DNA from: Gemmatimonadota bacterium
Lineage (GTDB): Bacteria > GCA-2686955
NCBI GenBank assembly: GCA_002686955.1
Contig: NYZA01000236.1
Location: forward strand, 1 to 14,650
Length of the DNA stretch: 14,650 bases
Direction of reading: 5' to 3'
Below are positions 1 to 14,650 of this stretch, piece after piece. The position numbers and the translations under genes were made by a program. The notes below the pieces were generated by a model that saw only the letters and a program-made list of their open reading frames with translations, had not been told where the DNA came from and ran no database searches. The stretch's first letter is position 1; every line of letters starts with the position of its first letter.

Positions 1-92
1 AGATCGGAACGAAGGCGGATGCCGGGCGAAGCGAAGGCTATGTGCAACAGGCTCCTAGTGCGCCTGGCCGAGCTCCGCCCCGAGCAGGCGAC

Positions 93-518
93 CTACATGC
101 AGCCCTGACGTTCCAGGCATTTGGCTACGGCCTGATATACAAGTCGTGCCACAGCAACAGCATGCTCAATGGTGTCGCGATCATCGAACTCGTCATCCCA
201 GCCCGGGTAGCGCGGCGCCACCGCCATTTGTGAGAGCAGCTCGAGATCGTCCTCGTCCACAGCGAGCGACTGCCGATCCGAATCGGGGAGTCGAGCCCAA
301 AGCGCTTCCAAGTCGTGTGTTCTTTGGGGTTGCTGGCCGGCAAAGACGGCAAGTGCCTTGAGCGATTTCTCGGCCGCTTGCTGGGCATGAAATGCGACCG
401 TGTCCAATGGTCCGTCTTTGTGCGGCAGAACGATCTCGATTGCCTTGAGGTCGTTGGCAGCCTTTTGCATCCAGGCACGTGCCTGTGCGCACTGTGCCTC
501 ACGAGGCATAGAGGACAC
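93..518 (-). CDS. HEPN-domain protein (putative toxin of a HEPN/MNT pair)
   Basis: 141 aa. The motif '...FHAQQAAEKSLKALAV...QRTHDLEALW...' is typical of PF05168-type HEPN. It overlaps the upstream nucleotidyltransferase gene by 20 nt on the same strand, which is the classic MNT-HEPN arrangement. Confidence 0.7.
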   Translation of the reverse strand: MSSMPREAQCAQARAWMQKAANDLKAIEIVLPHKDGPLDTVAFHAQQAAEKSLKALAVFAGQQPQRTHDLEALWARLPDSDRQSLAVDEDDLELLSQMAVAPRYPGWDDEFDDRDTIEHAVAVARLVYQAVAKCLERQGCM

Positions 519-876
519 GTCCTTCGTGCGCAGCGGGGTAAGCCACCGTGCCGGCGAGCTCTCTATGTGTTTCGAACTCGTCAGGCGTTAGCACAAAGAT
601 ATCTTTGGCAATTCCCAGTCCGCGCAGAGACTTTCGTATCTCTACCGCTGTGCGCAGTCGGCTACCCGTGTAGGACATGACAAACAACAAGTCGTAGTCG
701 CTCTCCGCCGTTGCCGCGCCGCGAGCCCGCGACCCGAAGAGGATCACCTTACGGGGCTCGAACGTGGGCACTGTCCTCCGCACGATCGCCGCCAAGATGG
801 CGGCATCGGCCTCTTCCGCGGATCTACTGTGCTGCATGCGCGTGAGCTTACCAACTTCCCGCCAAGTCAGCGGCAA
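499..876 (-). CDS. Minimal nucleotidyltransferase (MNT, Pol-beta superfamily; putative antitoxin partner of HEPN)
   Basis: The signature 'ILFGSRARGAATAESDYDLLFV' is the GS-x(9-13)-DxD NTase signature. The start is uncertain: TTG at 876 or ATG at 837 (MQHSRS...), and neither has a strong SD. Confidence 0.65.
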   Translation of the reverse strand: MPLTWREVGKLTRMQHSRSAEEADAAILAAIVRRTVPTFEPRKVILFGSRARGAATAESDYDLLFVMSYTGSRLRTAVEIRKSLRGLGIAKDIFVLTPDEFETHRELAGTVAYPAAHEGRVLYAS

Positions 877-1005
877 CCGATCGCGGGTGCGGCCGGCTTC
901 CTCAAGTCCGGGGGAGAGCCTGGCAGCCCGTTGCGCATGGTCCTTGCGCGCTCAACCCGGGAGCACGGTAGGGAGCACCGATCCGCTCCGGCCTCGATCG
1001 CTCGG

Positions 1006-1034
1006 TTGACACCCCCTCGTCCGCATGCTAGTGT
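1006..1034 (+). promoter_or_regulatory. sigma70-like promoter candidate for the BMC operon (TTGACA-17 nt-TAGTGT)
   Basis: TTGACA at 1006-1011, an exact 17-nt spacer, and TAGTGT at 1029-1034. It lies in the 283-bp divergent intergenic region between MNT and the first shell gene. The predicted 5'UTR is about 120 nt and contains small palindromes (ccgga-cacc-tccgg; cctcga-catcgat-tcgagg). Confidence 0.3.
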
Positions 1035-1159
1035 CCGCCCACAAACCTCTGTAATGCCGCAACTTGCGCCAGCCGGACACCTCCGGAGCGCGCCTTTCCG
1101 CGGAATCGTTCCACAGCCACATCCTCGACATCGATCGAGGCGCGACGGCGGGAGAAGAC

Positions 1160-1444
1160 ATGACTCTGGACGCTCTGGGAATGGTCGAAACCAAAGGGCT
1201 CATCGGTTCGATCGAAGCGGCCGATGCGATGGTGAAGGCCGCCAAGGTCTCCCTGATCGGCAAAGAGAAGATCGGTGGCGGTTTCGTCACCGTGATGGTT
1301 CGAGGAGATGTGGGGGCGGTCAAAGCCGCCACCGATGCCGGTGCCGCCGCCGCCGAACGGGTCGGCGAGCTCGTATCGGTCCATGTCATCCCGCGTCCGC
1401 ACGCCGACGTCGAGATGATCCTCCCGAACGCCGGCGGCAAATAG
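1160..1444 (+). CDS. BMC-H shell protein (PF00936, PduA/EutM-like hexamer)
   Basis: '[25 protein letters not shown]...HVIPRPH' is canonical BMC-H. The start ATG at 1160 is preceded by GGGAGAAG. The ORF-track start at 1064 is an upstream extension with no similarity. Confidence 0.9.
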
Positions 1445-1466
1445 CGCGTCGTCGCGAGGGCCCAGC

Positions 1467-1895
1467 ATGGGAGACGATCGCGCACTCGGAATGGTCGAGA
1501 CCGAGGGCCTCATCGCCGGCATCGAAGCCGCCGACGCCATGGTGAAGGCGGCGAAGGTGCGGCTCGTCGAGCGGGAGGTCACCGTCGCCAAGCTGGTCAC
1601 TATCAAGGTGGCCGGCGAGACCGGCGCCGTACGGGCCTCGGTGGAGGCCGGCGTGGCGGCAGCCAGAAAGGTCGGCACCGTGGTATCGAGCCATGTCATC
1701 CCCCGCCCCCACGAAGATGTGGAGAAGATCATCTATCCGGAGCTGCGGCACAACCCGGCACCCGACGGAGAGCTCGACTCGTTGACGGTTGCGGAGCTGC
1801 GCCGCCGCGTTCGCGCGATCCCCGACAGCGGTCTCTCCGGCCGCGACATCTCACGGGCCAGCAAGGATCAGCTCATCGCTGTGCTGCGTGGCTAG
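1467..1895 (+). CDS. BMC-H shell protein with about 50-aa C-terminal extension (Rho_N/SAP-like helix-hairpin)
   Basis: The N-terminal 90 aa are canonical BMC-H ([25 protein letters not shown]...HVIPRPH). The tail '[37 protein letters not shown]' matches the Rho N-terminal-domain pattern (L..ELR..A..LGI.G.S...K.ELI.AIL). Confidence 0.88.
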
Positions 1896-1928
1896 AGGGC
1901 GGCCCGCCCGAGCACGGAAACCCATGCC

Positions 1929-3461
1929 ATGTCCTTCGACCCAGATCTGAAGGCGATCCAAGAGGTTCGCGACGCACTTGGGGCCGCCCACTCGGCCCAA
2001 AAGCAGTTCGCGGAGACTGATCAGGCCCAGGTCGATCAGATCGTGGGCGCGATGGCCCACGCCGCTCGGAACGAGATCGAATCGCTCGCCCGCCTCGCCG
2101 TCGAAGAAACGGGAATGGGGATCTACGAAGACAAGATCGGCAAGAACCGCTTTGCCGCCGTCGACGTCTACGAGCACATCCGCTCCATGCGCACGGTGGG
2201 AATCCTCTCGGAGTCTACCGAACGCGGAATCGTAGAGATCGCTCAGCCGATGGGGGTCGTCGCCGCGATCATTCCGACCACGAACCCCACCTCCACGGCG
2301 ATCTACAAGATCCTCATCTCGGTCAAGGCCCGAAACGGGATCGTGATCTCGCCCCACCCGCGCGCCAAAGGGTGTATTCGCCGCACAACCGAGCTCATGG
2401 TCCACGCCGCGCGCGGGGCCGGCGCCCCCGATCGACTGATCTCGTGTCTCGAGAATCCCACGCTCGAGTCCACCCAACATCTGATGTCGCACGATCTCAC
2501 TGCTGTCATTCTCGCGACGGGGGGCTCGGGATTGGTCAAGGCGGCCTACTCCAGCGGGAAGCCGGCCTTCGGAGTCGGTCCCGGTAACGTGCCGGCCTAC
2601 ATCGACCGCTCGGCTGATGTAGCCAAGGCCTGCCGCGACATCATCACCGGCACCGCCTTCGACAACGGAACGATCTGCGCGTCGGAGCAGTCGGTCGTCG
2701 TCGACGCCCCGGTCGAAGAAGAGGCCCTTCGCTCTTTCGAGGCAGCCGGTGGGTACATTCTCAGCCCCGAGGAAAAAGCGCGCCTCGAGCCGATCGTCGT
2801 CAAGAAGAGCGGCGCGGTCGATCCCGCAATCGTTGGCCAGCATGCCCGAGATATCGCCCGAAAGGCCGGGATCCAGGTTCCCGAGGGCACCAAGGCCCTG
2901 ATTGCCCGCCTCGACCGGGTCGGCAAGACCGAGGAGCCCCTCTCGATCGAGAAGCTCTCGCCGATCCTGGGCTTCTACGTGGTCGCCGACTGGGTCCGCG
3001 GCTGCGAACGCTGCATCGAACTGCTGCGCTTGGGGGGCATGGGTCACACTCTGGCCATTCACGCCACAGACGAATCGGTCATCCGGGAGTTCGGTTTGAA
3101 GAAGCCGGTTTTCCGGATCGTGGTGAACACCCCCTCGACCCACGGCGCGATCGGTCTGTCCACAGGTCTTGCCCCGGCCATGACCCTCGGCTGCGGTGCG
3201 GTTGGCGGCAACATCACCGGCGACAATGTCTCGCCTCTGCATCTGATCAACACGAAACGCTTGGCCTACGGGATCAAAGAGGTCGAGCTGGCTCCCCGTG
3301 CATCGGAAGGCGGGCTCCGCGCCGACGGGCGGGTCGGTCCCACTTGCCGGAGCGAAGCATCGGCCGGCGTAGACGCGGGTGCGTCGGTCGGTCACGCGCT
3401 GTCGGAATCCGACATCGAGCGGATCGTGGAGGACTTCCTCCGCGAGCGGCGGAGCGGGTGA
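1929..3461 (+). CDS. CoA-acylating aldehyde dehydrogenase (PduP/EutE family) with C-terminal linker and encapsulation-peptide-like helix
   Basis: 510 aa with the catalytic-Cys context 'NGTICASEQS', a glycine-rich NAD site and overall PduP-like order. There is no N-terminal extension. The C-terminal 55 aa form a low-complexity linker followed by the amphipathic 'SESDIERIVEDFLRERR'. Confidence 0.9.
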   Translation: MSFDPDLKAIQEVRDALGAAHSAQKQFAETDQAQVDQIVGAMAHAARNEIESLARLAVEETGMGIYEDKIGKNRFAAVDVYEHIRSMRTVGILSESTERGIVEIAQPMGVVAAIIPTTNPTSTAIYKILISVKARNGIVISPHPRAKGCIRRTTELMVHAARGAGAPDRLISCLENPTLESTQHLMSHDLTAVILATGGSGLVKAAYSSGKPAFGVGPGNVPAYIDRSADVAKACRDIITGTAFDNGTICASEQSVVVDAPVEEEALRSFEAAGGYILSPEEKARLEPIVVKKSGAVDPAIVGQHARDIARKAGIQVPEGTKALIARLDRVGKTEEPLSIEKLSPILGFYVVADWVRGCERCIELLRLGGMGHTLAIHATDESVIREFGLKKPVFRIVVNTPSTHGAIGLSTGLAPAMTLGCGAVGGNITGDNVSPLHLINTKRLAYGIKEVELAPRASEGGLRADGRVGPTCRSEASAGVDAGASVGHALSESDIERIVEDFLRERRSG

Positions 3462-4258
3462 GCGAGCGGAACGCGCCACCGACTCTTCTGGCGCTCCAGG
3501 ACTATGTGTTCCACCGGCCCGTGCCGGTCGGCGTTTCGAATCGGCATGTCCATCTCTGCGATGCCGACATTTCCCGGCTTTTTGGCCCCCGCCACCTTCT
3601 CTCCAAACGCCGCGATATCGTGCAAAAAGGTCAGTTCTCTTGCCAGGAAGTGGTGACCGTGGCCACCTCGGCCGGCGTGCTGCGAGATGTCCGCGTCATG
3701 GGACCATCGCGCGCCCGCACCCAAGTGGAGCTCGCCCCTTCCGATGCCCGGGAGCTTGGATTGCGCGCGCCGTTGCGCCCTTCCGGCGATACGAACGACT
3801 CCGCGGGGTGCGTCCTCATCGGTCCAAAGGGCTCCATCGATCTCGCCGCTGGAGTGCTGATCCCCGAGAGACACCTGCACATGTCGCCGAGAGACACCGC
3901 CTTTTTCGGTGTTGCGCAGGGCGATCGACTCCGGGTCGCGGTGCCGGGTCGACGCGGGGGCCTGCTCGCGGATGTCCTTGTGAGGGTTCATGAGCGATTC
4001 GTGCTCGAGCTTCATCTCGACACCGACGAAGCGGGAGCACTGCTCGCGCGCAACGGCGACTTGACCTACGTGGTCGACGACGAGAGGCTCGGAGTCGACT
4101 TGAACCTCCGCCTGGCGCGGCCGCCGGGAGGGCGACGCCTAATGACCGAAAGCGAGCTCAGGCGCGTCGTTCGCACCGAAGGACGGGTGCGAATCCCCCA
4201 CGGTGTGCTTCTCACGCCATCGGCGCGCGATCTCGCCCGGCGACTGAAGCTCGACTGA
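3458..4258 (+). CDS. pduL: PduL-type phosphotransacylase (two PF06130 repeats) with about 40-aa C-terminal extension
   Basis: 'VPVGVSNRHVHL' and a second 'PERHLHMSP' motif, with 'GPSRARTQVELAPSDARELGL' between them. The proposed GTG start at 3458 overlaps the aldehyde dehydrogenase stop (GTGA). The ORF-track start at 3344 lies inside the dehydrogenase gene and is unlikely. The C-terminal tail is 'MTESELRRVVRTEGRVRIPHGVLLTPSARDLARRLKLD'. Confidence 0.85.
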   Translation: MSERNAPPTLLALQDYVFHRPVPVGVSNRHVHLCDADISRLFGPRHLLSKRRDIVQKGQFSCQEVVTVATSAGVLRDVRVMGPSRARTQVELAPSDARELGLRAPLRPSGDTNDSAGCVLIGPKGSIDLAAGVLIPERHLHMSPRDTAFFGVAQGDRLRVAVPGRRGGLLADVLVRVHERFVLELHLDTDEAGALLARNGDLTYVVDDERLGVDLNLRLARPPGGRRLMTESELRRVVRTEGRVRIPHGVLLTPSARDLARRLKLD

Positions 4259-4593
4259 TGTTCATCGGACGGGTCGTCGGCACGGTTTGGGCAACCAAGA
4301 AGACGGAGAACCTGGACAACTTGCGTTTTCTGGTCGTCCATCCCGTCAACCTGAACAAGGCGCCGAACACCGATATCGTGGTTGTTGCCGATCGCCTCGG
4401 CGCCGGTCCCGGCGAGCTGGTGATGTGTGCCTACGGGCACGCCGCTCGCACCGCCGTGGGAGATACCGACCAATCGATCGAGGCGGCCGTCGTTGGCATC
4501 ATCGACTCCGTCGATATCGACCAGGCGGAGGTCGAAGCGATCGAGAAGCGGTCCGCGGGAAGCCTGGCGATGAACAACGACGGGAGGAGATAG
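4258..4593 (+). CDS. BMC-P vertex protein (EutN/CcmL/PduN family, PF03319)
   Basis: 'MFIGRVVGTVWATKK...LVVHPV...VVADRLGAGPGELVMCAYGHAAR'. The ATG overlaps the pduL stop (TGATG). There is an about 25-aa acidic C-terminal tail. Confidence 0.9.
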   Translation: MFIGRVVGTVWATKKTENLDNLRFLVVHPVNLNKAPNTDIVVVADRLGAGPGELVMCAYGHAARTAVGDTDQSIEAAVVGIIDSVDIDQAEVEAIEKRSAGSLAMNNDGRR

Positions 4594-4594
4594 C

Positions 4595-5008
4595 TTGGAG
4601 CTCGAAAGAGACGACGTACGGGCCATCGTCGAGGATGTGCTCGACTCGTACCAGACTGGAGGGTGCGTGCAGCGGCACGAACGAGCCGAGGTCACCGAGA
4701 CCGAAGCCGCCGCCCCCCGCACCGGCGCGCCGGTGAGCCACAGGGTCATCATCACCGCGCTCGGCCGCAACGCCCCCGGGATCGCGTCCGGTGTGACCGG
4801 GGCCTTGGCCGACGTCGGCGCGGATATTCTCGACATGAGCCAGACCCTTCTGGGCGATTTCTTCACGATGATCATAGTGGCCGATCTTTCGACCGCGACC
4901 ATCGATTTCGGAATGGTCCAGGAACATCTGGCGGATCGCGGTGTTGAGCTGGGCGTTCGAATCGTCGCCCAGCACGAAGACGTCTTTCGCTACATGCACC
5001 GCATTTAG
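4595..5008 (+). CDS. UPF0237-family ACT-domain protein with N-terminal encapsulation-peptide-like helix and linker
   Basis: The TTG start sits 1 nt after the BMC-P stop and is preceded by GGGAGGAG. The N-terminus 'MELERDDVRAIVEDVLDSY' closely resembles the PduD-type encapsulation peptide (…RQIIEDVLSEM). An about 30-aa linker follows, then an ACT domain 'HRVIITALGRNAPGIASGVTGALADVGADILDMSQTLLGDFFTMIIVADL...VFRYMHRI'. Confidence 0.7.
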   Translation: MELERDDVRAIVEDVLDSYQTGGCVQRHERAEVTETEAAAPRTGAPVSHRVIITALGRNAPGIASGVTGALADVGADILDMSQTLLGDFFTMIIVADLSTATIDFGMVQEHLADRGVELGVRIVAQHEDVFRYMHRI

Positions 5009-5020
5009 GGTCCGCACAGT

Positions 5021-5080
5021 ATAGCTAGTGATCTTGGCATCCCATCTGCGGCACATCTGGGCGCCAAGATCACCAGCTAT
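5021..5080 (+). promoter_or_regulatory. Large intergenic hairpin (18-bp stem, one A·C mismatch, 24-nt loop) between the ACT and DUF711 genes
   Basis: ATAGCTAGTGATCTTGGC (5021-5038) pairs with GCCAAGATCACCAGCTAT (5063-5080). Stem GC is below the genome average. The hairpin lies within the 103-nt gap and covers the alternative GTG 5028. Confidence 0.5.
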
Positions 5081-5111
5081 TCCTGAGTGGACCCATGGAG
5101 CAACCGAATCG

Positions 5112-6473
5112 ATGTCCTGGAGCCGCGACGAAATCCTCGAAACCGTGCGGATGCTCGAGACCGAGCATCTCGACATCAGAACCGTGACCCTGGGAATCAG
5201 CCTCCTCGATTGTGCCGGCGGCGATGCTGGCCGCGTCTGTCACCGTGTCGCGGAGAAGATCAGCTCGTACGCGGCGAACTTCGTCCACCAGGCGAGACGG
5301 GTCGAGGCCGACTACGGCATTCCGATCGCTAACAAGCGGATCTCGATCACGCCGGCGGCGATCTTCGGCGCGGGCCTCGACGCGGACGGATTCGTGCGGC
5401 TCGCCGAGACGCTCGACCGGGTGGCCGAGGAGATCGGCGTGGATTATTTGGGCGGTTTTTCCGCTCTCGTGCACAAGGGCTTCTCGCGGGGCGACCTCGC
5501 CTACTTCGAGGCGCTCGCCGAGGCGCTCGCGACCACCAAACGGGTTTGCGCATCGGTCAATGTGGCCACCACGACGGCCGGCATCAACATGGACGCCATC
5601 GCGCGCCTGGGCACACTCATCAAAGACCTCGCCGAGCGCACCCGCGGAGAGGGTGGAATCGGCTGCGCGAAGCTCGTCGTCTTCGCGAATGCGCCCGATG
5701 ACAACCCCTTCGTCGCGGGCACTTTTCATGGCGTCGGCGAAGCGGAGTGCGCCGTAAACGTCGGCGTGAGCGGCCCCGGTGTGGTTCGCGCGGCCCTCAC
5801 GCCGTGCGCCGGCATCGACCTGGGCTCACTCGCCGAGGTCGTAAAACGGACCGCATTCAAGATCACCCGTCTCGGCGAGATGATCGGGCGACGGGTCGCC
5901 GAGCGGCTCGGTGTCGATTTTGGGATCGTCGATGTCTCGCTCGCTCCCACTCCCGCGGCGGGGGATTCGGTGGCCGACATACTCGAGCTCATCGGGATAG
6001 AGCGAACCGGTGCGCCGGGTACGACCGCTGCGTTGGCTCTGCTCACCGATGCGGTGAAGAAGGGCGGCGCGATGGCAACGAGCGCGACCGGTGGCCTTTC
6101 CGGCGCTTTCATCCCAGTCTCTGAAGACCAAGGCATGATTCGGGCCGTGCGCGAAGGGGCACTCTCTCTGGAGAAGCTCGAAGCGATGTCGGCCGTATGT
6201 TCGGTCGGCCTCGATATGGTCGCCGTGCCGGGCGACACCCCCGCCTCGACCATCAGCGGCATCATCGCCGACGAGATCGCGATTGGCGTAATCAATTTCA
6301 AGACCACCGCGGTTCGGATTCTCCCCCTCCCGGGAATGAAGGCCGGAGAATCGGTCGACTACGGTGGGCTCCTCGGCGAAGCGCCGGCGATGCCGGTCAA
6401 CCCGTTCAGATGCGACGAATTCGTCGCCCGCGGAGGCCGGATCCCCCCTCCGATCCGATCGATGAAGAACTGA
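5112..6473 (+). CDS. UPF0210/DUF711 (PF05167) family protein of unknown function
   Basis: 453 aa from ATG 5112, with GGAG 11 nt upstream. '[27 protein letters not shown]...NKRISITP...[20 protein letters not shown]...[16 protein letters not shown]...[14 protein letters not shown]' is collinear with UPF0210. The ORF-track start GTG 5028 adds 28 non-conserved residues inside the hairpin. Confidence 0.8.
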
Positions 6474-6500
6474 GGGATCACCCAGAGCGCCCGTTTTTTT
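6474..6500 (+). terminator. Possible operon-end terminator: weak GC stem followed by T7 tract
   Basis: gggatcaccc...gcgcccg then TTTTTTT (6494-6500) immediately after the DUF711 stop. The stem is weak or ambiguous, but a T7 run is rare in this GC context. Confidence 0.2.
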
Positions 6501-6636
6501 GCCGCTCATTCCTCGAACAGTTCCAACATAGGGAAGCGGAAAGAGGGAATCTCAGCTCGGGCGATTCTGTGCAAGTAACTATGTCTCAGGCGTTTGTGAG
6601 GTTCTAGCCGGGGCTGTGCGGCAGTTGCGCGGCCTG

Positions 6637-6669
6637 GTAAGAAAATCACCATGGGGACGTTTTTCTTAC
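6637..6669. other. AT-rich 9-bp inverted repeat hairpin (GTAAGAAAA-15 nt-TTTTCTTAC) in low-GC intergenic spacer
   Basis: A perfect 9-bp stem with no flanking U-tract on either strand. It sits about 90 nt upstream of the flgM-like start. Confidence 0.4.
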
Positions 6670-6758
6670 TCATGCCGTACCGGAAACACCCGATTTGATT
6701 GGTTAGAGCCCGACCACGAGGAGAGAGGCCTCGGAAACCATCTGAAAGGACCGAATCG

Positions 6759-6965
6759 ATGACACGCACAAAGAAGATCGACGGCGCTGCCACAAAGTCC
6801 GTGAAGAGCCAGGCAACCAGCATCGACGCTCGAAAACTCCAGCGTGTTCGCGCCCGGATCGCAAACGGTTACTACGATCGTCCCGAGGTCCTGCGCGATC
6901 TCGTGGATATCCTTCTGCCCGTGCTCGAACGACCCGGAACCGATCCGTCCCCGAGCCGCGACTAG
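6759..6965 (+). CDS. flgM: FlgM-like anti-sigma-28 factor family protein
   Basis: 68 aa. The C-terminus 'IDARKLQRVRARIANGYYDRPEVLRDLVDILL' matches the FlgM pattern (vd.eKvaalkaaIasGtY.vdaekiAdkll). AAAGGA lies 8 nt upstream of the ATG. The ORF-track 6699 start is an upstream extension. Confidence 0.5.
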   Translation: MTRTKKIDGAATKSVKSQATSIDARKLQRVRARIANGYYDRPEVLRDLVDILLPVLERPGTDPSPSRD

Positions 6966-6987
6966 TCGAAGGACTCCGCCCGCGGCA

Positions 6988-7764
6988 ATGCGCGCAATGC
7001 CCCTCGCGCATCCGCGAAATCCCCCATCCCGGTCTTCGCCCGTCGGCCGCCCGGCACATTTCGCCCGGCCATTCTCCGCGCCACCGGTGGTAGAACCCCA
7101 TGCCGTGAAGCCGGTTGTGCGATCGCTGGCCACGCGGTGCCCCATCGCGTTCCGGGGGCACACGACTTGCACTTCGCCCCAATCCATCCAGCGGAGAAGC
7201 GAAGTGGACAGAAGTACCCGCGACATCGTCGATGATTTCATTCACGAGACCTATCTCGATCGACTCGACGAAAAGGCGATTCTGAAAGACCTGGAACGAT
7301 TCTCTGAAATCTGCGGCAAGGTGATCTCGGAGACGATCCAAGACGGCAGCAAGATCGTCGAGTTGAACCGTCGACTAACCTCGATTCGGCAGAAGCAGAT
7401 GCTCTCCGCAGCCGACGAGGGTGAGGACGATCCGCCGTGGTCGAGCACGCCAAAGCGACGGGTCAGCAGAGCCCGACGGGTGGTGCGAAACAAGCGTCTC
7501 ATTCTCAGCGCCATTCACGAGATTTCGCCGGGCACGGCCGACAGAATCCGTTGCTCCGTGCACCCAAGCGTTCAAACCGGTCGGCGCTCGGCGAGGCGAG
7601 CGCTCCCGGCCCCCGGCAGGGCCCCCGAGATTGGCGAACAGGCTGAAGAAAGCGGCCCGCTGAAAGCTCCGACGAGTACACCGGCGTTTTCGACCCACAT
7701 GATGATCGCCCTTGCGCTGGTCGTATTGCTCGGCGTCACCGTGCTCTTCTCCATCGCCCAATAG
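6988..7764 (+). CDS. Hypothetical protein with Pro-rich N-terminus, a predicted helical/coiled region and a C-terminal transmembrane anchor
   Basis: It lies in the 6844..7764 frame. GC3 is coding-like from about 7200. 'DIVDDFIHETYLDRLDEKAILKDLERFSEICGKVISETIQ' appears helical. The last 21 aa 'MMIALALVVLLGVTVLFSIAQ' are hydrophobic. The start is uncertain: ATG 6988 or 6997, or GTG 7204. Confidence 0.35.
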   Translation: MRAMPLAHPRNPPSRSSPVGRPAHFARPFSAPPVVEPHAVKPVVRSLATRCPIAFRGHTTCTSPQSIQRRSEVDRSTRDIVDDFIHETYLDRLDEKAILKDLERFSEICGKVISETIQDGSKIVELNRRLTSIRQKQMLSAADEGEDDPPWSSTPKRRVSRARRVVRNKRLILSAIHEISPGTADRIRCSVHPSVQTGRRSARRALPAPGRAPEIGEQAEESGPLKAPTSTPAFSTHMMIALALVVLLGVTVLFSIAQ

Positions 7765-7782
7765 CCCGCCTGATTCCCGGCC

Positions 7783-8580
7783 TTGCTCAACTTCGATATC
7801 TGCTTCCGGTCGACCTTCCTCCGGCGCGACGTTTCGGTCTGCTGGAATGAGACAGCCTACGCTCCGCCGCGCGAGATCGAAGATAGAGTCGCGAGACTTT
7901 GGAAATCGGCCCTGGCGAAGGCCAGTCATCACGGCCAAAGCCTCTTTGCGGGACCACTCTGTCGGCTCGATGACCACCAAATCGCGGGCGACCGTCTTTT
8001 CCTGTCCCTCTCGATGACCGACTACCGGGATTTGCAGGGAACGAGCGGGTCGGCATGGCCGGGTGGTCTGCCGCGAGCCGCGCGGGCCGACGGAATTGGG
8101 GTCAACTCCGCGATCGTCACTGCCGATCGGCAGCTCGTGCTCGTCCGCAGGAGCGAGTCGGTCTACGAGAGCCCCGGCACCATAGACACCGGTGGCGGAC
8201 ACATCGATCCCATGTCACACAGGAGTGGAGGACGACCCGATCCCTTCGCCGCGATCGAGTCGGAGATCCGTGACGAGTTCGGATTGGTCCAGTCGGAGCT
8301 CGAAGAGACGCGGCTTCTGGGCTTGGCGCGGCATCGCCCCGGCGGAAAGCCGGAGCTGCTCTTTCTCGCCGAGATCTCCCTTCCCTTCAGTGTGCTTCCA
8401 GGTCGACTGGGGTCGGCGATCGAGGGGAGCGAGACCGCGGAGCTGATGGCGGTTCCCCTGGTCGATGCCGAAGCTGCGCTCATCGCGCACGAGCACGAGC
8501 TCTCCCCCTCGGGGCAGGCCTCGATCTACTTTGCGCTCAGAGAATGGGAGCGCACTGGAACTCTGGATCGAGCTCGGTGA
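7783..8580 (+). CDS. Hypothetical protein, probable Nudix-fold with degenerate Nudix box
   Basis: 'VNSAIVTADRQLVLVRR...PGTIDTGGGHIDP...PFAAIESEIRDEFGL' approximates G-x5-E-x7-REUxEExGU, with an insertion and R/E substitutions. The start is uncertain. Confidence 0.4.
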   Translation: MLNFDICFRSTFLRRDVSVCWNETAYAPPREIEDRVARLWKSALAKASHHGQSLFAGPLCRLDDHQIAGDRLFLSLSMTDYRDLQGTSGSAWPGGLPRAARADGIGVNSAIVTADRQLVLVRRSESVYESPGTIDTGGGHIDPMSHRSGGRPDPFAAIESEIRDEFGLVQSELEETRLLGLARHRPGGKPELLFLAEISLPFSVLPGRLGSAIEGSETAELMAVPLVDAEAALIAHEHELSPSGQASIYFALREWERTGTLDRAR

Positions 8581-9298
8581 GCTCCGAGATCAGGCTGTTC
8601 AGGCGGCTCTTTACACCGGGGGCGCCACCGTCGCTTTGCAGATAAAGGGAGTACAGGTCGAGGAAATCGTCCCGCTTGCGCGCGATGCTTCCTTGATTGC
8701 CGATCGCGTTGACGTGCCGCATCAGGTGGAAGAGATCCCCCTCGCGCAGCCGAGGAGTCAGCCCAAGATGTTCTCGGCACGCATGCCGCACGATGCGCGC
8801 GTACTTGTCCAGATCCTGCGCGAGCTTTCCCAGAATCTCCGCGACACCCGCGTCGCGCCGGGCGAGCCGCCGCAGCAGATCGGCGGCGAACATGTAGTAC
8901 ATGCGCGCCCGTCCCACCCAGTAGTCCGGGCGGTGCTCGTAGTAACGCAAGGGACGCACGGTTCCGGCACCCTCGTCGAAGATGGCGAAGCGTGCCACGA
9001 TCGAGTCGGCGTTCGCCTGGTAGATCGTCGCCTTGCGGCGTTCGCCACAGTCTTCCGTCACTGCCGCGACTTCGCGGTCGCTCTCTCTCACCAGTTCCGA
9101 CCGCGCCCTTACCCTCTCGGGATCGACGAAGCTGACCATGAGGTCGGCGAGATAGACATTGACGTCCTCGTCGAAGTAGGGGCTGTTCGATTCCAGACCC
9201 AGGGTCAATCTCGATTTGAGAAGGGCGTTGACCATGAAGAACGACGTGGGTTCCCTGACACCTTGGGGGTGATTCAGATCCACGTAGCGATCCCTCAT
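8537..9298 (-). CDS. Hypothetical protein (no family recognised)
   Basis: 253 aa with a natural composition (Y/F/W/D/K), in contrast to the R-rich antisense ORFs on the + strand. AGAGGA lies about 7 nt upstream of the ATG. It overlaps the 3' end of the + strand gene convergently by 44 nt. Confidence 0.5.
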   Translation of the reverse strand: MRDRYVDLNHPQGVREPTSFFMVNALLKSRLTLGLESNSPYFDEDVNVYLADLMVSFVDPERVRARSELVRESDREVAAVTEDCGERRKATIYQANADSIVARFAIFDEGAGTVRPLRYYEHRPDYWVGRARMYYMFAADLLRRLARRDAGVAEILGKLAQDLDKYARIVRHACREHLGLTPRLREGDLFHLMRHVNAIGNQGSIARKRDDFLDLYSLYLQSDGGAPGVKSRLNSLISELTELDPEFQCAPIL

Positions 9299-9497
9299 GT
9301 TGGTCCTCTAGCCGGGGGAGATGATTGGGCGACCCCTTGGAGCCTGCCGCGCACCAGCTGTGCCTGCAGGTCGCGTGCCCTTCGATTGGTGTTATCGGCA
9401 AGAGATCAGTTCGAGTCCAGGCCGACCCTTCCCCGTAGCCTCTTGGTAGGCTGCTTCGACGAAGCACACCCACGTCCACCCGCGGAGCCGGATCAAC

Positions 9498-10304
9498 TTG
9501 AGCCCCCGTTCCCCCGCGCCGATTCGCCGCGCCCTGGCCCTGCGCTCCTCCAGAGGACGGGGGAAGAGCGGCCACTACCTCATCGAAGGTGCGCGCGGAG
9601 CGCTCGACGCGCTGGAGCGGACGAGATCTGTCGTCGAAGTGTTGATCTCGGATGCGGCGGGCGAGGAGGCGTCCACTTCGGTCCGGCGTGCCGCCGAGCG
9701 CTTCGCCGTGCCGGTGCATGCGGTGGCCAACGACGACTTTCGCCGAATCGCTCAAGTCGTGCATACGCAAGGCATAGCTGCGATCGCCCGAAAGCCGCCC
9801 GAACCCGCCCCGACCACACCTCTCCTACCGCGGGGGCCGGGGGTCGCGCTGGTTCTCGATGGAGTAAGGGATCCTGGGAACCTCGGCACGATCTCGAGAA
9901 CGGCGGAGGCCGCGGGTTGCACGGGCCTGATCCTGACGCCGGGATGTGGCGACCTCTACAACCCGAAGGTGGTCCGCGCGGCCTTCGGCTCGTTGATCAA
10001 CCTGCATTCTCGCTCCCTACCGCCAGAAGCGATCGTGGCCGCCGCACGGAAAGAAGAGCTCCCCTTGGTGTTGCTCGACGCCGACCAAGGGCTGCCACTC
10101 CAGGAGTTCAATGCCCCCGATCGGATGATCTTGGTCGCGGGGGGAGAGCCGAATGGAGTCGGCAAGACGCTGAGGAGGGCAGCGACCTCGCGACTCCGCT
10201 TCGATCTCCGCGGCGGCGTTGAATCGTTGAATGTGGCCGTCGCCACCGGCATCGCCCTTTTCGCTTGCAGGGACCGGCGGCCCCTTCGCAAAGTGCAACG
10301 GTAG
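9498..10304 (+). CDS. SpoU/TrmH-family RNA 2'-O-ribose methyltransferase
   Basis: The three SPOUT motifs are present: 'LVLDGVRDPGNLGTISRTAEAAG', 'ILVAGGEPNGV' and 'ESLNVAVATGIALF'. The N-terminus '...GHYLIEGARG' resembles the TrmH substrate-binding region. The TTG start is uncertain. Confidence 0.8.
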   Translation: MSPRSPAPIRRALALRSSRGRGKSGHYLIEGARGALDALERTRSVVEVLISDAAGEEASTSVRRAAERFAVPVHAVANDDFRRIAQVVHTQGIAAIARKPPEPAPTTPLLPRGPGVALVLDGVRDPGNLGTISRTAEAAGCTGLILTPGCGDLYNPKVVRAAFGSLINLHSRSLPPEAIVAAARKEELPLVLLDADQGLPLQEFNAPDRMILVAGGEPNGVGKTLRRAATSRLRFDLRGGVESLNVAVATGIALFACRDRRPLRKVQR

Positions 10305-10421
10305 CCGATGCAGAGTGCGCCCATTCCTAGGGCCCGCTCCACTGGAAGAGCGCCGAGGCGTGTATCGTAAACGACTGATGTGAAACGACGTTGCGAGGAC
10401 CTAGCTCCGTCGCCGGCCATC

Positions 10422-10436
10422 TGGCACACCCTTTGC
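10422..10436 (+). promoter_or_regulatory. sigma-54 (-24/-12) promoter candidate: TGGCAC-N5-TTGC
   Basis: cTGGCACaccctTTGCg, with exactly 10 nt between GG and GC. It is oriented toward the lipoprotein gene, whose start is about 138 nt downstream. Confidence 0.3.
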
Positions 10437-10573
10437 GCGGCACGTCGCGCAGGTCTCCCGGCGATCCGCCCAGCGGGGGGGAATCCGGACCGGGGCGTAA
10501 GGCCACAAAGACGACGACCGGCGGTGTCTTGCGAGAGAGGCAAGTGCGCACGCCGCGACAGGAGGAATGTGTC

Positions 10574-11353
10574 GTGCCCAAGCAAAGGACGAGTTTTGGC
10601 GTAGTCGCGGGTGTCGCATCGATAGCGATTCTCGCAGGGTGTGAGAGCACCAGCATCACCGATCCGGATTTCAACGCGATTCAAGGAACCGGGGGAGATT
10701 TGATTGCCGCCCCCTATGTCGATCAGGAGTCCGCCGATGCTCCGGTGCTCGGCTACAACGGAGACGATGGGCCGTGGGCGGATCCCGAGGAGCCCGCTCT
10801 TGGCTACGAAGGCGATGGGTTCTGGGCCGATCCCCAGGTCCCGGTCATTGGATATGAGGAGGACGATTCCTGGGCAAAGCCCGAGGATCCCGTGCTCGGC
10901 TACGACGGCGATGATCCCTGGGCGAATCCAGATGTTCCGATCGAGGTCGTGAATCCATCCTTCAGCTACCCCTTCGAGTTCCAAATGGTCAATCCCGTGG
11001 GAGATGACGCATGGGGGAACCTGGGGATCGATTTCGAGTCTCGCGACCTGCGCCTCGTCGTCGGCGAGCTCAAGGCCGAACCCACGATCTCCTACGAGAT
11101 CCAGGTGCATTTCCTTTCGGATCACACCTTTTCGGAAGCGGGCTGGTTCAGCTTCAGCGATGAGGGACAGATGGTCATGGGGCACTGGGAGCTCCCGCCA
11201 ATGGGCAGTGAGCCGGATGATAACTACCCGGATCGCATCATCGTGGTGGAGCACGATGAGAACGGCCCCGGCTTCACCGGCGAAGAAGTTCTCGTCGCGA
11301 CCATCCCCTTCAACCGCGGACACGAAGGGCAGGACGATCGTTCGGTAGACTAG
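10574..11353 (+). CDS. Lipoprotein with four tandem acidic 16-18-aa repeats and a C-terminal domain of unknown function
   Basis: GTG 10574 has AGGAGG 9 nt upstream. The signal peptide 'MPKQRTSFGVVAGVASIAILAGC' carries an L-A-G-C lipobox. The repeats are 'P-x-LGY-(D/E)-GDD-x-WA-x-P-(E/D)'. The ORF-track start at 10391 is an upstream extension. Confidence 0.65.
   Translation: MPKQRTSFGVVAGVASIAILAGCESTSITDPDFNAIQGTGGDLIAAPYVDQESADAPVLGYNGDDGPWADPEEPALGYEGDGFWADPQVPVIGYEEDDSWAKPEDPVLGYDGDDPWANPDVPIEVVNPSFSYPFEFQMVNPVGDDAWGNLGIDFESRDLRLVVGELKAEPTISYEIQVHFLSDHTFSEAGWFSFSDEGQMVMGHWELPPMGSEPDDNYPDRIIVVEHDENGPGFTGEEVLVATIPFNRGHEGQDDRSVD
10739..10936 (+). repeat. Four imperfect tandem 48-54-bp repeats (coding for the acidic LGY/GDD/W repeats)
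   Basis: APVLGYNGDDGPWADPEE / PALGYEGDGFWADPQV / PVIGYEEDDSWAKPED / PVLGYDGDDPWANPDV. Confidence 0.7.
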
Positions 11354-11366
11354 ATTCGGTCCATTT

Positions 11367-11433
11367 CCCCCCGTAGACCGGGGGTCACGAACCGCCACAG
11401 AGATCGCCCCCGGGCACCATCCGGGGGCGATCT
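11367..11433 (+). terminator. Two GC hairpins downstream of the lipoprotein stop (6-bp stem at 11367-11384; perfect 13-bp stem at 11401-11433 with 7-nt loop), no U-tract
   Basis: AGATCGCCCCCGG-gcaccat-CCGGGGGCGATCT. This may be a U-tract-less intrinsic terminator, as is common in high-GC bacteria, or an RNA stabiliser. Confidence 0.35.
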
Positions 11434-11470
11434 GCGTTCGGGCGGTCCCGCGCGGCGTTACGCCTCGCCA

Positions 11471-11500
11471 TTGATGCCGGGCGCACTTACTCCCTATACT
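11471..11500 (+). promoter_or_regulatory. sigma70-like promoter candidate (TTGATG-18 nt-TATACT) for the REC-GGDEF gene
   Basis: -35 at 11471-11476 and -10 at 11495-11500. It predicts an about 160-nt 5'UTR containing further small hairpins (GGTCCC...GGGACC). Confidence 0.3.
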
Positions 11501-11670
11501 CCCGGGTAGTGGACCGATCGGCGCCTCACCGCGTTTCCGGCAAGGTCCCTTTTGGAGCCGGGACCCTCCGGGCATGATCGACCGGTCGTAACCGGTGGTG
11601 CTGCTCCCCTCTTCGATCGACGATGGGGGGGCACGAATCGCGATGTCGCTCCGCACGGTAATTTCACGAG

Positions 11671-12687
11671 ATGGCTGAACTCTCGACAACCTCCGCCTCG
11701 ATGGCGTCATCGGGAGACTCCCCGGATCCGCGGGCCGAGTCCTCCGGCGATCCACGAGAAGCTCCGATCGGCGGTGGCAGGGCGCGCGTGTTGGTCGTCG
11801 ACGACGTGGAATCGGTGCGCGAGATGATGGCCGAGGCGCTGCGCCTGGACGGCCACGAAGTCACGGTCGCCGCGAGCGGTGAAGAAGCCCTCGACCTGTC
11901 CCGCGAGATCGCGTTCGACGTGTCTTTCGTCGATCTGGTCATGCCCGACACCAACGGCCTCGACGTGCTCAAGAGCCTCCTTCAGTTCACTCCCGATGCC
12001 GACATCGTGGTTGTCACCGGGTTTGCAACCATTGAAGTCGCGGTCGAGTCGATGCGACTCGGCGCCGCCGACTTCGTTACCAAACCGTTTTCCAATACGC
12101 ACTTGCAAGTCGTCGTTTCCAAGGTCTTGGAACGAAGGCGACTGATCAAGGCGGCCAAGGAAAAGGACTACTACAAACGCCTTTCACGCCTGGACGGCCT
12201 GACGGAGCTTTACAACCACCGCTTTTTTCATCAGTTGGTGGACTCCGAAGTCGCACGGGCCCGGAGATTCGGACACAAAATCTCTCTGTTGATCCTCGAT
12301 CTCGATCGCTTCAAGGACTTCAACGACCGGTACGGCCATCCGGCCGGCGACTTCGCGCTCAAGCAGGTCGCGGACCTGCTGCGGAATACCTGTCGAAAGT
12401 ACGACTTCATCGCGCGCTACGGCGGTGAGGAATTCGCGATCATCTCCCCGGGGAGCGACTCATCACAGGCATCCGTGCTTGCCGAGCGCATCCGCGAACG
12501 AATGAGTGAAAGCGATTTCGCCATGGGTGACGGTGTGGCGCATCTGACGCTGAGCGTTGGTATCGCGTGCCTGCCGGAGGACGCTGGGGCCAAGAAAGAA
12601 CTGATCGAGCGGGCCGATCGCGCGCTCTATCTCGCGAAGGATCGGGGTCGGGATTGCGTCGTTCTCGCGAAGGAGCTCTCTTCGTGA
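11671..12687 (+). CDS. Response-regulator diguanylate cyclase (REC-GGDEF, PleD/WspR-like)
   Basis: The REC domain has 'VLVVDD', phospho-acceptor 'FVDLVMPD', 'VVVTGF' and 'TKPF'. A coiled linker follows. The GGDEF domain has the active site 'RYGGEEF' and an I-site 'RKYD' five residues upstream. Confidence 0.9.
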   Translation: MAELSTTSASMASSGDSPDPRAESSGDPREAPIGGGRARVLVVDDVESVREMMAEALRLDGHEVTVAASGEEALDLSREIAFDVSFVDLVMPDTNGLDVLKSLLQFTPDADIVVVTGFATIEVAVESMRLGAADFVTKPFSNTHLQVVVSKVLERRRLIKAAKEKDYYKRLSRLDGLTELYNHRFFHQLVDSEVARARRFGHKISLLILDLDRFKDFNDRYGHPAGDFALKQVADLLRNTCRKYDFIARYGGEEFAIISPGSDSSQASVLAERIRERMSESDFAMGDGVAHLTLSVGIACLPEDAGAKKELIERADRALYLAKDRGRDCVVLAKELSS

Positions 12688-12779
12688 GCTCCATGAGACC
12701 GAATCTCCACCACAACAGAACATGATTCAAGATCAACCGGCGTGCCGTGCGGTGCGCCCGTTGTGGAAGGAGACGTGCA

Positions 12780-14650
12780 GTGGAGTCGACCACGGGGCAC
12801 GGAGAAACCAGCACGACCCCTGAAGACCAGGTGTTGCTGCCGGCAAAGGGCATCAAGCGCAAGATTCTCGAAGTTCTGGCCGTCTTGGGCCGAGGAAGCA
12901 AGAGCGAGGATCTCCGCTCTGCTCTGGGATACCGTGGCAGGAACTGGCGCTACTTCATGAGCGATCTCGTTGATCGAGGCCTGGTCACCCGCACCGACGA
13001 CCCTCAAGCCGAGGCGGCATATGAAATCGCGGGTGGCGAGTTGCGGGGAGATGTTATCGGGCGAATTACAGAAACCGAGCGGGCAGGTTTGGAGCGCATT
13101 CTGAGCGATCTCGAAGATGAAGCGAAAGAGCCCGCCACGGACAGCAATGACCCGGAGAGACCCCAGGTCGAGCCTGCGTCCCCTCGGGATGACGAGAGAG
13201 CCGACTCGGGCGAATGCGCGCCGGAATACCCCGAGTCGGCCGAATCACAGGCAGACGCTTCCGCATCTCCCTCCTCGGCCGGGAATGGGGCGGACCAATC
13301 CACCCGCAAGTCGAGGGGTCGCAAGGACCGTCGCCGGTCCCGGTCCGGGGACGAGTCCGGAGAGGAGCTGTTGAGATTGGCCGAGGATGCACTGCGCCGG
13401 GGAGACAACGACAGCGCATTGTCGTTCGCGCGGGATGGTATCGAGGGGAAGTACGAAGGGACCGGAGAAGGCTTGGAGCTGGAACCGCTATTCAGAATCA
13501 GGGCTGCCCAGGCCCACATCCGGGCGCTGCGCCTGGGAGAGGCCCGGACCCTCCTCGATCCCCTGACCGGCGAGGATCAGGCCCCTCGAACCCGAGAGAC
13601 TGCGCTGGCGCAGATCGTGGCAGCGGAGTGCCATCTGGCGGATGGCAAGATCGAGCGCACCCGAGAGCTCATGGTCAAGGCCGATGCATACAAGGGAGAG
13701 CCGTCGAACGAACACGCCATGAGGAAGGCGATTCTAGATGCAAAGCTGGCGCTGATGGGGGGGCGCCCCTCCGAGGCTCTGCGCCGGATTGACACGCTGC
13801 ACCGAACCCCTGATGATCCCGCGGACCGCGCCCGCTTGTCGTTGCTGCGCGGAACTGCGCTTTTCCGCCTCGGAGAGTTCGAGCGAGCGGTTTCCCCGTT
13901 GCAAGAAGCGCTCGATATCGACCGCAATCGTGGAAACACCGAGGGGGAACGAGAAGCCGCGCTCTTCCTAGGGCGAGCTTTCCACTGTCGCGCGCAGTTC
14001 GCGAAAAGCGACAGCTTCTTGGAGAGGGCCAATGCTCTCGCGAAAGGGGCTCGAAACGAAGAAACGCGGGTTCGAGTTGCACTTGCACGGGCGACCGTGT
14101 ACGCCGATCGCGGTGACGCAGCCCGCCTGGAGGGGGCCCTGGATTCTCTCCCGCCCAGGGCGCGGAAAGAGAACGCGCGATTCGACCTGCAGCAGGCGCG
14201 GCTGCTCTTGCTCAAGGGGCGGATGGGCGATGCCGTCGAGGCCCTTGAAAAGCTCACGGAAACCAAGCTCGGCGATTCCGATGCGGCCGATGCGCTCCGT
14301 GAGTTGGGTGTCTGCTATAGACACTTGGGTCACCAAGAAGCCGCCGTCGGACCCCTCGAAGAGAGCTTGCGACGGGCGGAGCGCGCCCGTGATCGCGTGT
14401 CGATCGCCCGCTGCAGGGTCGAGTACGCGCTGGGTCTGCTCGACCATCCGGATGCCGCGAAACGGTCCGGCGCGGTCGTAGACGTCAAGAAGGCGCTGCG
14501 GCTTCTCGAGTACCTCGAAGTTCCAGACCTCGTGTGGCGCGGCTACCATGCGTTGGGATTGATCTTCTTGGAAGAGGGGAGACACGAGGACGCCTTCGTC
14601 CGCCTGGGTGACGCGACGGCGATCCTCGACCAGCTTCTCGGCCGATTCCA
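12780..14650 (+). CDS. Large wHTH-disordered linker-TPR repeat protein (partial, continues past window end)
   Basis: The open frame from 12726 is not in the ORF track because there is no stop in the window. GTG 12780 has GGAAGGA upstream. The N-terminus 'KRKILEVLAVLGRGSKSEDLRSALGYRGRNWRYFMSDLVDRGLVTRT' is winged-helix-like. An acidic/Ser-rich linker of about 110 aa follows, then many TPR-like helices (…ALFLGRAFHCRAQFAKSDSFLERANALAK…). Confidence 0.6.
   Translation, partial: MESTTGHGETSTTPEDQVLLPAKGIKRKILEVLAVLGRGSKSEDLRSALGYRGRNWRYFMSDLVDRGLVTRTDDPQAEAAYEIAGGELRGDVIGRITETERAGLERILSDLEDEAKEPATDSNDPERPQVEPASPRDDERADSGECAPEYPESAESQADASASPSSAGNGADQSTRKSRGRKDRRRSRSGDESGEELLRLAEDALRRGDNDSALSFARDGIEGKYEGTGEGLELEPLFRIRAAQAHIRALRLGEARTLLDPLTGEDQAPRTRETALAQIVAAECHLADGKIERTRELMVKADAYKGEPSNEHAMRKAILDAKLALMGGRPSEALRRIDTLHRTPDDPADRARLSLLRGTALFRLGEFERAVSPLQEALDIDRNRGNTEGEREAALFLGRAFHCRAQFAKSDSFLERANALAKGARNEETRVRVALARATVYADRGDAARLEGALDSLPPRARKENARFDLQQARLLLLKGRMGDAVEALEKLTETKLGDSDAADALRELGVCYRHLGHQEAAVGPLEESLRRAERARDRVSIARCRVEYALGLLDHPDAAKRSGAVVDVKKALRLLEYLEVPDLVWRGYHALGLIFLEEGRHEDAFVRLGDATAILDQLLGRF

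Follow-up and report, generated by a model that had tools for sequence, protein, structure and literature searches.

A conserved SAP/Rho_N-like tail on bacterial microcompartment shell proteins and its possible role as an outward-facing nucleic-acid tether

Why should a protein of a bacterial microcompartment (BMC) shell end in a small domain of a nucleic-acid-binding-type fold? The question is raised by contig NYZA01000236.1 (GenBank assembly GCA_002686955.1) of a Gemmatimonadota bacterium, of which a stretch of 14,650 nucleotides (positions 1 to 14,650 of the forward strand), referred to here as the window, was analysed. At 1467..1895 on the plus strand, the sequence and the list of open reading frames (ORFs) give a gene with an ATG start that encodes 142 amino acids and ends with a stop codon at 1893-1895. 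A preceding reading made from the sequence alone had described its product as a BMC-H shell protein with a SAP-like C-terminal tail, and this fusion is real: the ORF comprises a BMC domain, a linker and the tail. The exact protein is present in public assemblies, being recorded in independent marine-metagenome assemblies and as the NCBI entry 'MAG: hypothetical protein CME06_16110 [Gemmatimonadetes bacterium]', and hence reflects neither a frameshift nor an assembly artefact. An antisense ORF at 1851-3479 was dismissed as a by-product of the high G+C content.

The N-terminal hexamer domain (residues 6-81, 1482..1709) matches the Pfam BMC family (PF00936) with an E-value of 3e-24 and 85.2 bits against a gathering cut-off of 24.5. 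Its structured core continues to residue 89 (position 1733), with residues 5-89 predicted by AlphaFold at a pLDDT of 95-98. The edge motifs through which BMC-H hexamers contact each other are the lysine of KAA(N) and (P/A)RPH (PMC8217296). K27 and R80 never vary in an alignment of 48 sequences, and P79 and P81 (within IPRPH, residues 78-82) reach at least 90 % conservation, i. e. the edge lysine and the IPRPH motif that tiling requires are, as judged from the alignment, kept in the tail-bearing domain. In addition, the gene is co-encoded with a BMC-P and encapsulated enzymes, as BMC-H, an aldehyde dehydrogenase (AldDH), PduL and BMC-P share one operon. By Pfam domain, edge motifs and operon, the tail-bearing protein is thus a BMC-H, which would presumably assemble into hexamers. 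The sequence-only reading had considered the hexamer domain normal, which holds for the edge motifs but not for the pore loop (1569-1583), where V-A-K takes the place of the G-G-G of the partner BMC-H (IGGGF). Across loci L008-L127, this loop reads T-x-(P/A)-A-L in most FCB-group relatives and KVGGGL in Firmicutes, and IGGGY/F in the partner BMC-H proteins. With its unusual pore loop, the tail-bearing hexamer may differ in permeability.

The partner is a canonical, tailless BMC-H of 94 residues as called (1160..1444, plus strand; Pfam BMC E-value 2.4e-28) that lies 22 nt upstream of the tail gene and whose ORF is open from 1064. Downstream, all on the plus strand, follow an acylating AldDH (1929..3461; Pfam Aldedh; NCBIfam EutE-type ACDH with an E-value of 4e-181 and 603.1 bits, below the 620.1-bit cut-off), a PduL-type phosphotransacylase (3458..4258; Pfam PTAC, E-value 5.5e-61), the BMC-P vertex pentamer protein (4258..4593; Pfam EutN_CcmL, E-value 5.2e-27) as well as a co-operonic ACT-domain protein (4595..5008) and a co-operonic DUF711/UPF0210 protein (5112..6473), both identified with Pfam and NCBIfam. 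The same gene order, including ACT followed by DUF711, recurs in a related marine contig (locus L006). No obvious aldehyde-generating signature enzyme is present in the window operon.

Several further features of this neighbourhood deserve mention. The PduL protein continues for about 40 residues past its PTAC domain (4133-4255, RRLMTESELRRVVRTEGRVRIPHGVLLTPSARDLARRLKL), and this extension shows similarity to the N-termini of the EutQ-like proteins in BMC loci of Firmicutes (BLASTP E-value 3e-4) and, weakly, to an E3-binding/PSBD motif. As the N-terminal helices of Salmonella EutQ bridge shell and cargo (PMC12487888), the extension may by analogy represent a shell-docking module that PduL has acquired. 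Compared with its NCBIfam model, the ACT-domain protein is extended at the N-terminus by 48 residues, which start with LERDDVRAIVEDVLDSY, and the AldDH C-terminus (3395-3458) reads SESDIERIVEDFLRERR. Both look like encapsulation peptides (compare NEQNVERVIRQVLERLG of CutF, PMC6971018), which makes the ACT and DUF711 (UPF0210) pair probable microcompartment cargo. Just upstream of the BMC operon, on the minus strand, overlapping genes encode a HEPN protein (93-518; Pfam HEPN, E-value 2e-23) and a minimal nucleotidyltransferase (499-876; NTP_transf_2, E-value 7e-8), an arrangement typical of HEPN/MNT toxin-antitoxin modules. Downstream, at 6762-9298 and 10574-11353, lie five ORFs of 67, 186, 265, 253 and 259 amino acids with no Pfam match at E ≤ 0.1 except a weak FlgM-like match of the 67-residue ORF. 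This unannotated gene set also follows the operon in L006.

Between the BMC core and the tail, residues 90-99 (1734..1763) form a flexible linker of ten residues that is recognized by a drop in pLDDT and by its hypervariability in homologues. The conserved tail domain itself occupies the last 43 residues (100-142, 1764..1892). The tail string quoted in the sequence-only reading corresponds exactly to residues 102-142 (1770-1892), and the tail lies within the interval that it gave, although the start of that interval at 1745 falls on residue 93, inside the linker. An AlphaFold2 monomer model of the full protein has a mean pLDDT of 90, with about 57 for the linker and 88-95 for the tail, which reaches 93.7 when modelled alone. 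DSSP assigns predicted tail helices to residues 100-105, 108-117, 125-130 and 133-141. Conservation and the model together delimit helix 1 (residues 108-117, V-AELRRRVR; 1788..1817) and a segment consisting of a short helix and helix 2 (residues 125-141; 1839..1889), and the predicted structure shows the helix-extended-loop-helix (HeH) arrangement.

How widely the tail is shared could be answered at several levels. A search with the whole protein gave many homologues of 136-196 amino acids at 94-99 % query coverage, and the same tail is present in all 47 full-length homologues that were aligned; its absence or lack of conservation in orthologous loci would, according to the sequence-only reading, have indicated an artefact. 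Within the tail, L111, R112 and L136 (L13, R14 and L38 in tail numbering) are invariant, and V108, A115, R116, G125, R126, I128 and A131 (V10, A17, R18, G27, R28, I30 and A33) are at least 90 % conserved. Of these, L111, R112, A115 and R116 lie on helix 1. The tail consensus (alignment A2) reads L...(T/P)V(R)ELRxLARxxPGxxxxGREISRANKxxLLxxLR, with a family signature, G-R-[ED]-I-S-[RK]-A-N-[KR], in the segment of the short helix and helix 2. A profile of 41 tails was then searched against 1.84 billion representatives (50 %-identity clusters of about 15 billion proteins) and retrieved 889 cluster representatives at E ≤ 1e-3, of which 387 reached E ≤ 1e-10. Among the best 150 of these 889 matches, the tail lies at the extreme C-terminus in every case, and neither Rho nor any other architecture occurs; in every architecture inspected, the tail is restricted to BMC-H. 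A recognizable N-terminal BMC domain is present in 204 of 240 tail-bearing sequences; the remainder are mostly short fragments, along with a few that have diverged BMC-like N-terminal domains. In four proteins (P0183, P0188, P0204 and P0244), a well-conserved tail follows a strongly diverged BMC domain (Pfam BMC E-value of 0.0035 for P0183, no match for P0204), which suggests that constraint on the tail can exceed that on the shell domain.

The linker behaves quite differently. In homologues it measures 7-254 residues (median 38), the ten residues of the window being among the shortest, and both its length and its sequence are hypervariable. E, K, S and P are abundant in it, and it is net acidic (-0.074 charges per residue). 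Such a disordered, acidic segment of variable length fits a leash better than a fixed structural element. The tail domain, on the other hand, is net positive, with a mean charge of +2.2 in the unbiased set and a positive charge in 85 % of 343 unique tails, a larger set in which the tails from genomes were chosen by the 12-position pattern described below, while the tail of the window carries only about +1 to +2. Five tail positions are K or R in at least 70 % of the sequences (R14, R18, R28, R/K32 and K/R35), and a conserved Ser and Asn lie beside basic positions within the G-R-E-I-S-R-A-N-K segment. Members of the HeH superfamily bind DNA, RNA or a particular partner via their loop and the N-termini of their helices, and the five basic positions and the net positive charge would fit a putative binding domain of this kind.

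The sequence-only reading had compared the tail with the Rho_N/SAP pattern, a relationship that proves remote but coherent. No model in Pfam or NCBIfam captures the tail, and the window's own copy stays below every Pfam threshold, with a sub-threshold HeH/LEM match (17.9 bits, cut-off 28.9) as its only one. Scanned singly, however, 17 of the 41 tails match Rho_N, four SAP and two HeH at E ≤ 0.01, the best Rho_N E-value being 8e-6. The tail consensus matches Rho_N with an E-value of 5.9e-5 (23.4 bits, below the cut-off of 24.9), mostly through the first helix, followed by FANC_SAP (0.0045) and SAP (0.01). Using hhalign, positions 3-42 of the tail profile were aligned to residues 4-38 of a single sequence, residues 1-66 of E. 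coli Rho (which we take to be UniProt P0AG30), with P=0.01 and in the expected register, the inter-helix loop of the tail being five residues longer. When the 41-tail profile was searched against all PDB sequences, no match was significant; among the relevant ones, the SAP domain of Ku70 ranked first (E-value 2.6), and Rho was not retrieved.

On the structural level, Foldseek gave no match against the PDB at E ≤ 0.001, all E-values being above 1, as expected for a query of only 44 residues, and the pattern of low-rmsd matches was considered instead. It includes several entries of Rho (about 2 Å, 28 % identity), the SAP domains of 3'hExo and FAN1, SLX4, the LEM domain of emerin and lysyl-tRNA synthetase. 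This is reportedly the set expected for the helix-extended-loop-helix superfamily according to the Aravind-Koonin description of SAP/HeH modules. Sequence and model thus support the tail as a distinct, unnamed branch of the HeH/SAP/Rho_N fold class, distant in sequence and marked by a G-R-E-I-S-R-A-N-K signature of its own. It differs from the known members of the superfamily (Rho_N, PF07498; SAP, PF02037; HeH/LEM, PF12949) in scoring below all gathering thresholds and in the inter-helix loop, which is longer by about five residues and forms an extra short helix. Unlike in Rho, the module constitutes the last 43 residues of a 142-residue shell protein; Rho itself was rejected as an identity, since the protein contains neither the RNA-binding OB-fold nor the RecA-type ATPase.

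In order to survey the genomic context, a degenerate DNA pattern of the tail signature with 12 fixed positions was scanned over a collection with one genome per species, giving at least 120 stretches where about 0.1 chance matches would be expected by a back-of-envelope estimate. As the pattern fixes these 12 positions, conservation figures from the genome set are biased there, and alignment A2 serves as the unbiased reference. All 120 listed matches are tail ORFs, with a BMC domain in the same ORF in 114 cases and the other six at locus or contig edges, and exactly one tail gene occurs per locus among the matches listed. Of the 120 listed loci, about 50 belong to Ignavibacteriota/Melioribacter, 22 to Firmicutes (among them Lacrimispora, Hungatella, Enterocloster citroniae DSM 19261, Ca. 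Formimonas warabiya, Peptococcales and Anaerovoracaceae), nine to Rhodothermales including Rubrivirga litoralis, and 15 to other Bacteroidota. Latescibacterota contribute six, Gemmatimonadota three, Chlorobiales, Zixibacteria and Planctomycetota two each, Calditrichia and KSB1 one each, and seven are unclassified. A Fidelibacterota genome with a tail gene was found in addition to the listed loci. As far as alignments and architectures tell, the tail is an unnamed domain family of at least 889 clusters at 50 % identity that is fused only to BMC-H in the architectures seen.

The loci themselves fall into different types. In 81 of the 127 loci examined, a short canonical BMC-H precedes the tail gene at a distance of no more than 300 nt, and in 76 of the 127 this bare pair, short BMC-H then tail gene, has no other BMC-related gene nearby. 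Such two-gene loci fit the 'FRAG' loci of the BMC catalogue, which lists them for Ignavibacteriae, Gemmatimonadetes, Planctomycetes and candidate phyla (PMC8217296). Another context is the AldDH-PduL-BMC-P-ACT-DUF711 operon of the window and L006. Loci of the Peptococcales type encode EutJ, a PduU/EutS-like protein, BMC-P, PduS, PduT and EutQ. In Lacrimispora sp. 38-1 (L061:10-7761), which belongs to a cultured genus of Lachnospiraceae, the locus is of the glycyl-radical enzyme (GRM) type, with the tail gene located between EutQ and AldDH and preceded by genes for the glycyl-radical enzyme, its activase, PduV/EutP, Fe-ADH, EutJ, BMC-P and EutQ. The tail is therefore tied to no single substrate pathway, and its occurrence across different BMC classes speaks for a role that concerns the organelle as such, whatever the substrate. 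ORFs with a ParA/MinD-type Walker A motif were not detected beside the 120 listed loci (869 kb of flanking DNA); any positioning would hence work without a dedicated neighbouring motor.

What might the tail bind? An HeH-type module that is present once per locus, hangs on a leash of any length, has a conserved cluster of Arg, Lys, Ser and Asn and is independent of BMC type points to a ligand common to all these bacteria. This ligand could be nucleic acid, a housekeeping protein or the shell itself. In BMC-H, both the N- and the C-terminus are located on the concave face of the hexamer (PMC5534457), and this face points outward in assembled shells (PMC6787980). Carried over from these other shells, we infer that six tails per hexamer would be shown to the cytosol. 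The tail-bearing protein could thus form a specialized, minor BMC-H hexamer that presents an HeH/SAP/Rho_N module on a flexible linker in six copies on the outside of the organelle. Most likely, these copies would tether the organelle to nucleic acid, presumably that of the nucleoid, by multivalent contacts of low affinity. The tether would spread and partition the microcompartments in the cell and render the protein a functional analogue of EutK. For this outward, six-copy tether we infer orientation, binding and positioning alike, largely by analogy, and we favour it tentatively, at somewhat short of even probability. Some features speak against it: conservation across phyla extends to many non-basic positions of the surface and could mean a specific protein partner, the net charge is modest, the similarity to Rho_N and SAP is sub-threshold, and the only universally co-occurring protein is the partner BMC-H.

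The closest known counterpart is EutK. The C-terminal domain of this BMC-H is positively charged and putatively binds nucleic acid, and deleting EutK renders Eut BMCs static at the poles; a ParB-like or nucleoid-linked role was suggested by the authors of that study, who make the same point for PduK (PMC12487888). PduK likewise influences the subcellular position of its organelle (PMC12487888; PMC12058022). In Klebsiella, each of the three BMCs has exactly one extended BMC-H, and EutK behaves as a monomer in vitro (PMC12058022). The tail protein shares with EutK a single N-terminal BMC domain, a linker and a small, positive, putatively nucleic-acid-binding C-terminal domain (EutK_C, PF16365, in EutK), as well as its occurrence as one copy per locus beside canonical BMC-H paralogues. 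It differs in the fold of the C-terminal domain and in the lack of a eut context. EutK as an identity was rejected, since the tail protein has no PF16365 match at E ≤ 1 and the NCBIfam EutK model (NF012010; 77.9 bits, cut-off 218) aligns through its BMC part alone (profile positions 4-101 of 166). The tail protein also occupies the same slot of one 'extended BMC-H' per locus as PduK and CmcE. However, the extension of PduK is mostly disordered and contains a Cys-rich Fe-S motif, the CmcE tail of about 40 residues is predicted to be largely unstructured, and neither is described as HeH/SAP-like. By analogy, the tail protein may act in the manner of EutK and PduK. McdB/McdA, cited as an analogy for EutK (PMC12487888), link a protein organelle to the nucleoid for spacing and inheritance, as is proposed here for the tail; yet McdB is a separate adaptor working with a ParA-type ATPase, whereas the putative tether would be part of the shell protein.

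The most serious alternative, which we consider somewhat less probable than the tether, is a protein-protein adaptor. HeH, SAP and LEM modules also bind proteins, for example LEM with BAF and SLX4 with MUS81, and the fold therefore does not decide the ligand. As an adaptor, the tail could dock on the shell (partner BMC-H, BMC-P or a neighbouring hexamer) and thereby stabilize facets or cross-link compartments, or it could recruit a conserved cytosolic protein. The canonical BMC-H just upstream is the only conserved neighbour in the examined loci, and together with the protein binders of the superfamily, with SLX4 and the emerin LEM domain even among the structural matches, this pairing keeps the adaptor alive. 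Moreover, the G-R-E-I-S-R-A-N-K segment is conserved more tightly than non-specific backbone binding needs, and in GRM2, BMC-H proteins with C-terminal extensions change the size of the particles and form hetero-hexamers (PMC6971018; PMC12058022). On the other hand, docking on an adjacent tile would not call for a disordered linker of 7 to 254 residues, none of the genes follows the tail through the four locus types as a candidate partner should, and the conserved residues are mostly Arg, Lys, Ser and Asn, as is typical of phosphate contacts.

A second alternative keeps the nucleic acid but restricts it to RNA: like Rho_N and the SAP domain of 3'hExo, the tail could bind RNA specifically and recruit ribosomes or mRNAs to the shell, for instance to allow co-translational assembly or regulation. 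Rho_N is indeed the best sequence family, and the RNA-binding domain of Rho and the RNA-binding SAP domain of 3'hExo are among the structural matches. Rho, however, holds RNA mainly by the OB-fold that follows Rho_N and that is absent from the tail protein, and we know of no precedent among BMCs for a shell-bound RNA specificity, which makes this proposal improbable.

Still further removed is a tail that faces the lumen as a cargo scaffold or encapsulation signal. The encapsulation-peptide-like helices on the AldDH C-terminus and the ACT N-terminus must be bound by something, and a lumenal tail could take this part. But the termini of BMC-H lie on the concave face, outward in solved shells, the tail is, by its predicted fold, a module of two helices whose Gly/Arg loop is conserved, instead of a single amphipathic helix, and it also occurs in bare shell-gene pairs without adjacent cargo; we regard this placement as very improbable. 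Encapsulation peptides are single amphipathic helices of about 18 residues on a cargo enzyme, attached by a poorly conserved linker (PMC11585597). An encapsulation peptide as such was rejected, since the tail resides on a shell protein and has four helical segments and an invariant Gly/Arg loop. An annotation or sequencing artefact or a functionless chance resemblance, to which the lack of an above-threshold Pfam match for the window's own tail might point, is excluded for practical purposes by strong tail conservation beside a hypervariable linker, the confident structure prediction, the identical protein in independent assemblies, 889 cluster representatives with this C-terminal domain and the single tail gene per listed locus.

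Extended BMC-H proteins are already known; the catalogue says of them only that C-terminal extensions can reach 200 residues and group together on the tree of BMC-H (PMC8217296). The fusion to an HeH/SAP-like tail appears to be new. The sequence-only reading knew of no such shell protein, and a full-text literature search for a BMC shell protein with a SAP, Rho_N, HeH or LEM domain found no description, although other papers or domain databases may hold one. The tail defines a much larger class of 'extended' BMC-H that spans many phyla, with a nucleic-acid-binding-type fold and a sharp signature. It offers a practical marker for two-gene 'fragment' shell loci, which are poorly understood, and could provide an outward-facing handle for shell engineering. 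As tail bearers include the cultured bacteria Lacrimispora, Enterocloster citroniae, Melioribacter roseus and Rubrivirga litoralis, direct experiments are possible.

The positioning and inheritance of carboxysomes are explained by McdAB; for catabolic microcompartments, EutK and PduK were tied to metabolosome distribution only in 2025. Conceivably, though we rate this as rather doubtful, the tail is a built-in nucleoid anchor by which metabolosomes of many types hitch-hike on the chromosome via six SAP-like tails per hexamer. If true, metabolosomes would be spaced and inherited without a ParA/McdA motor.
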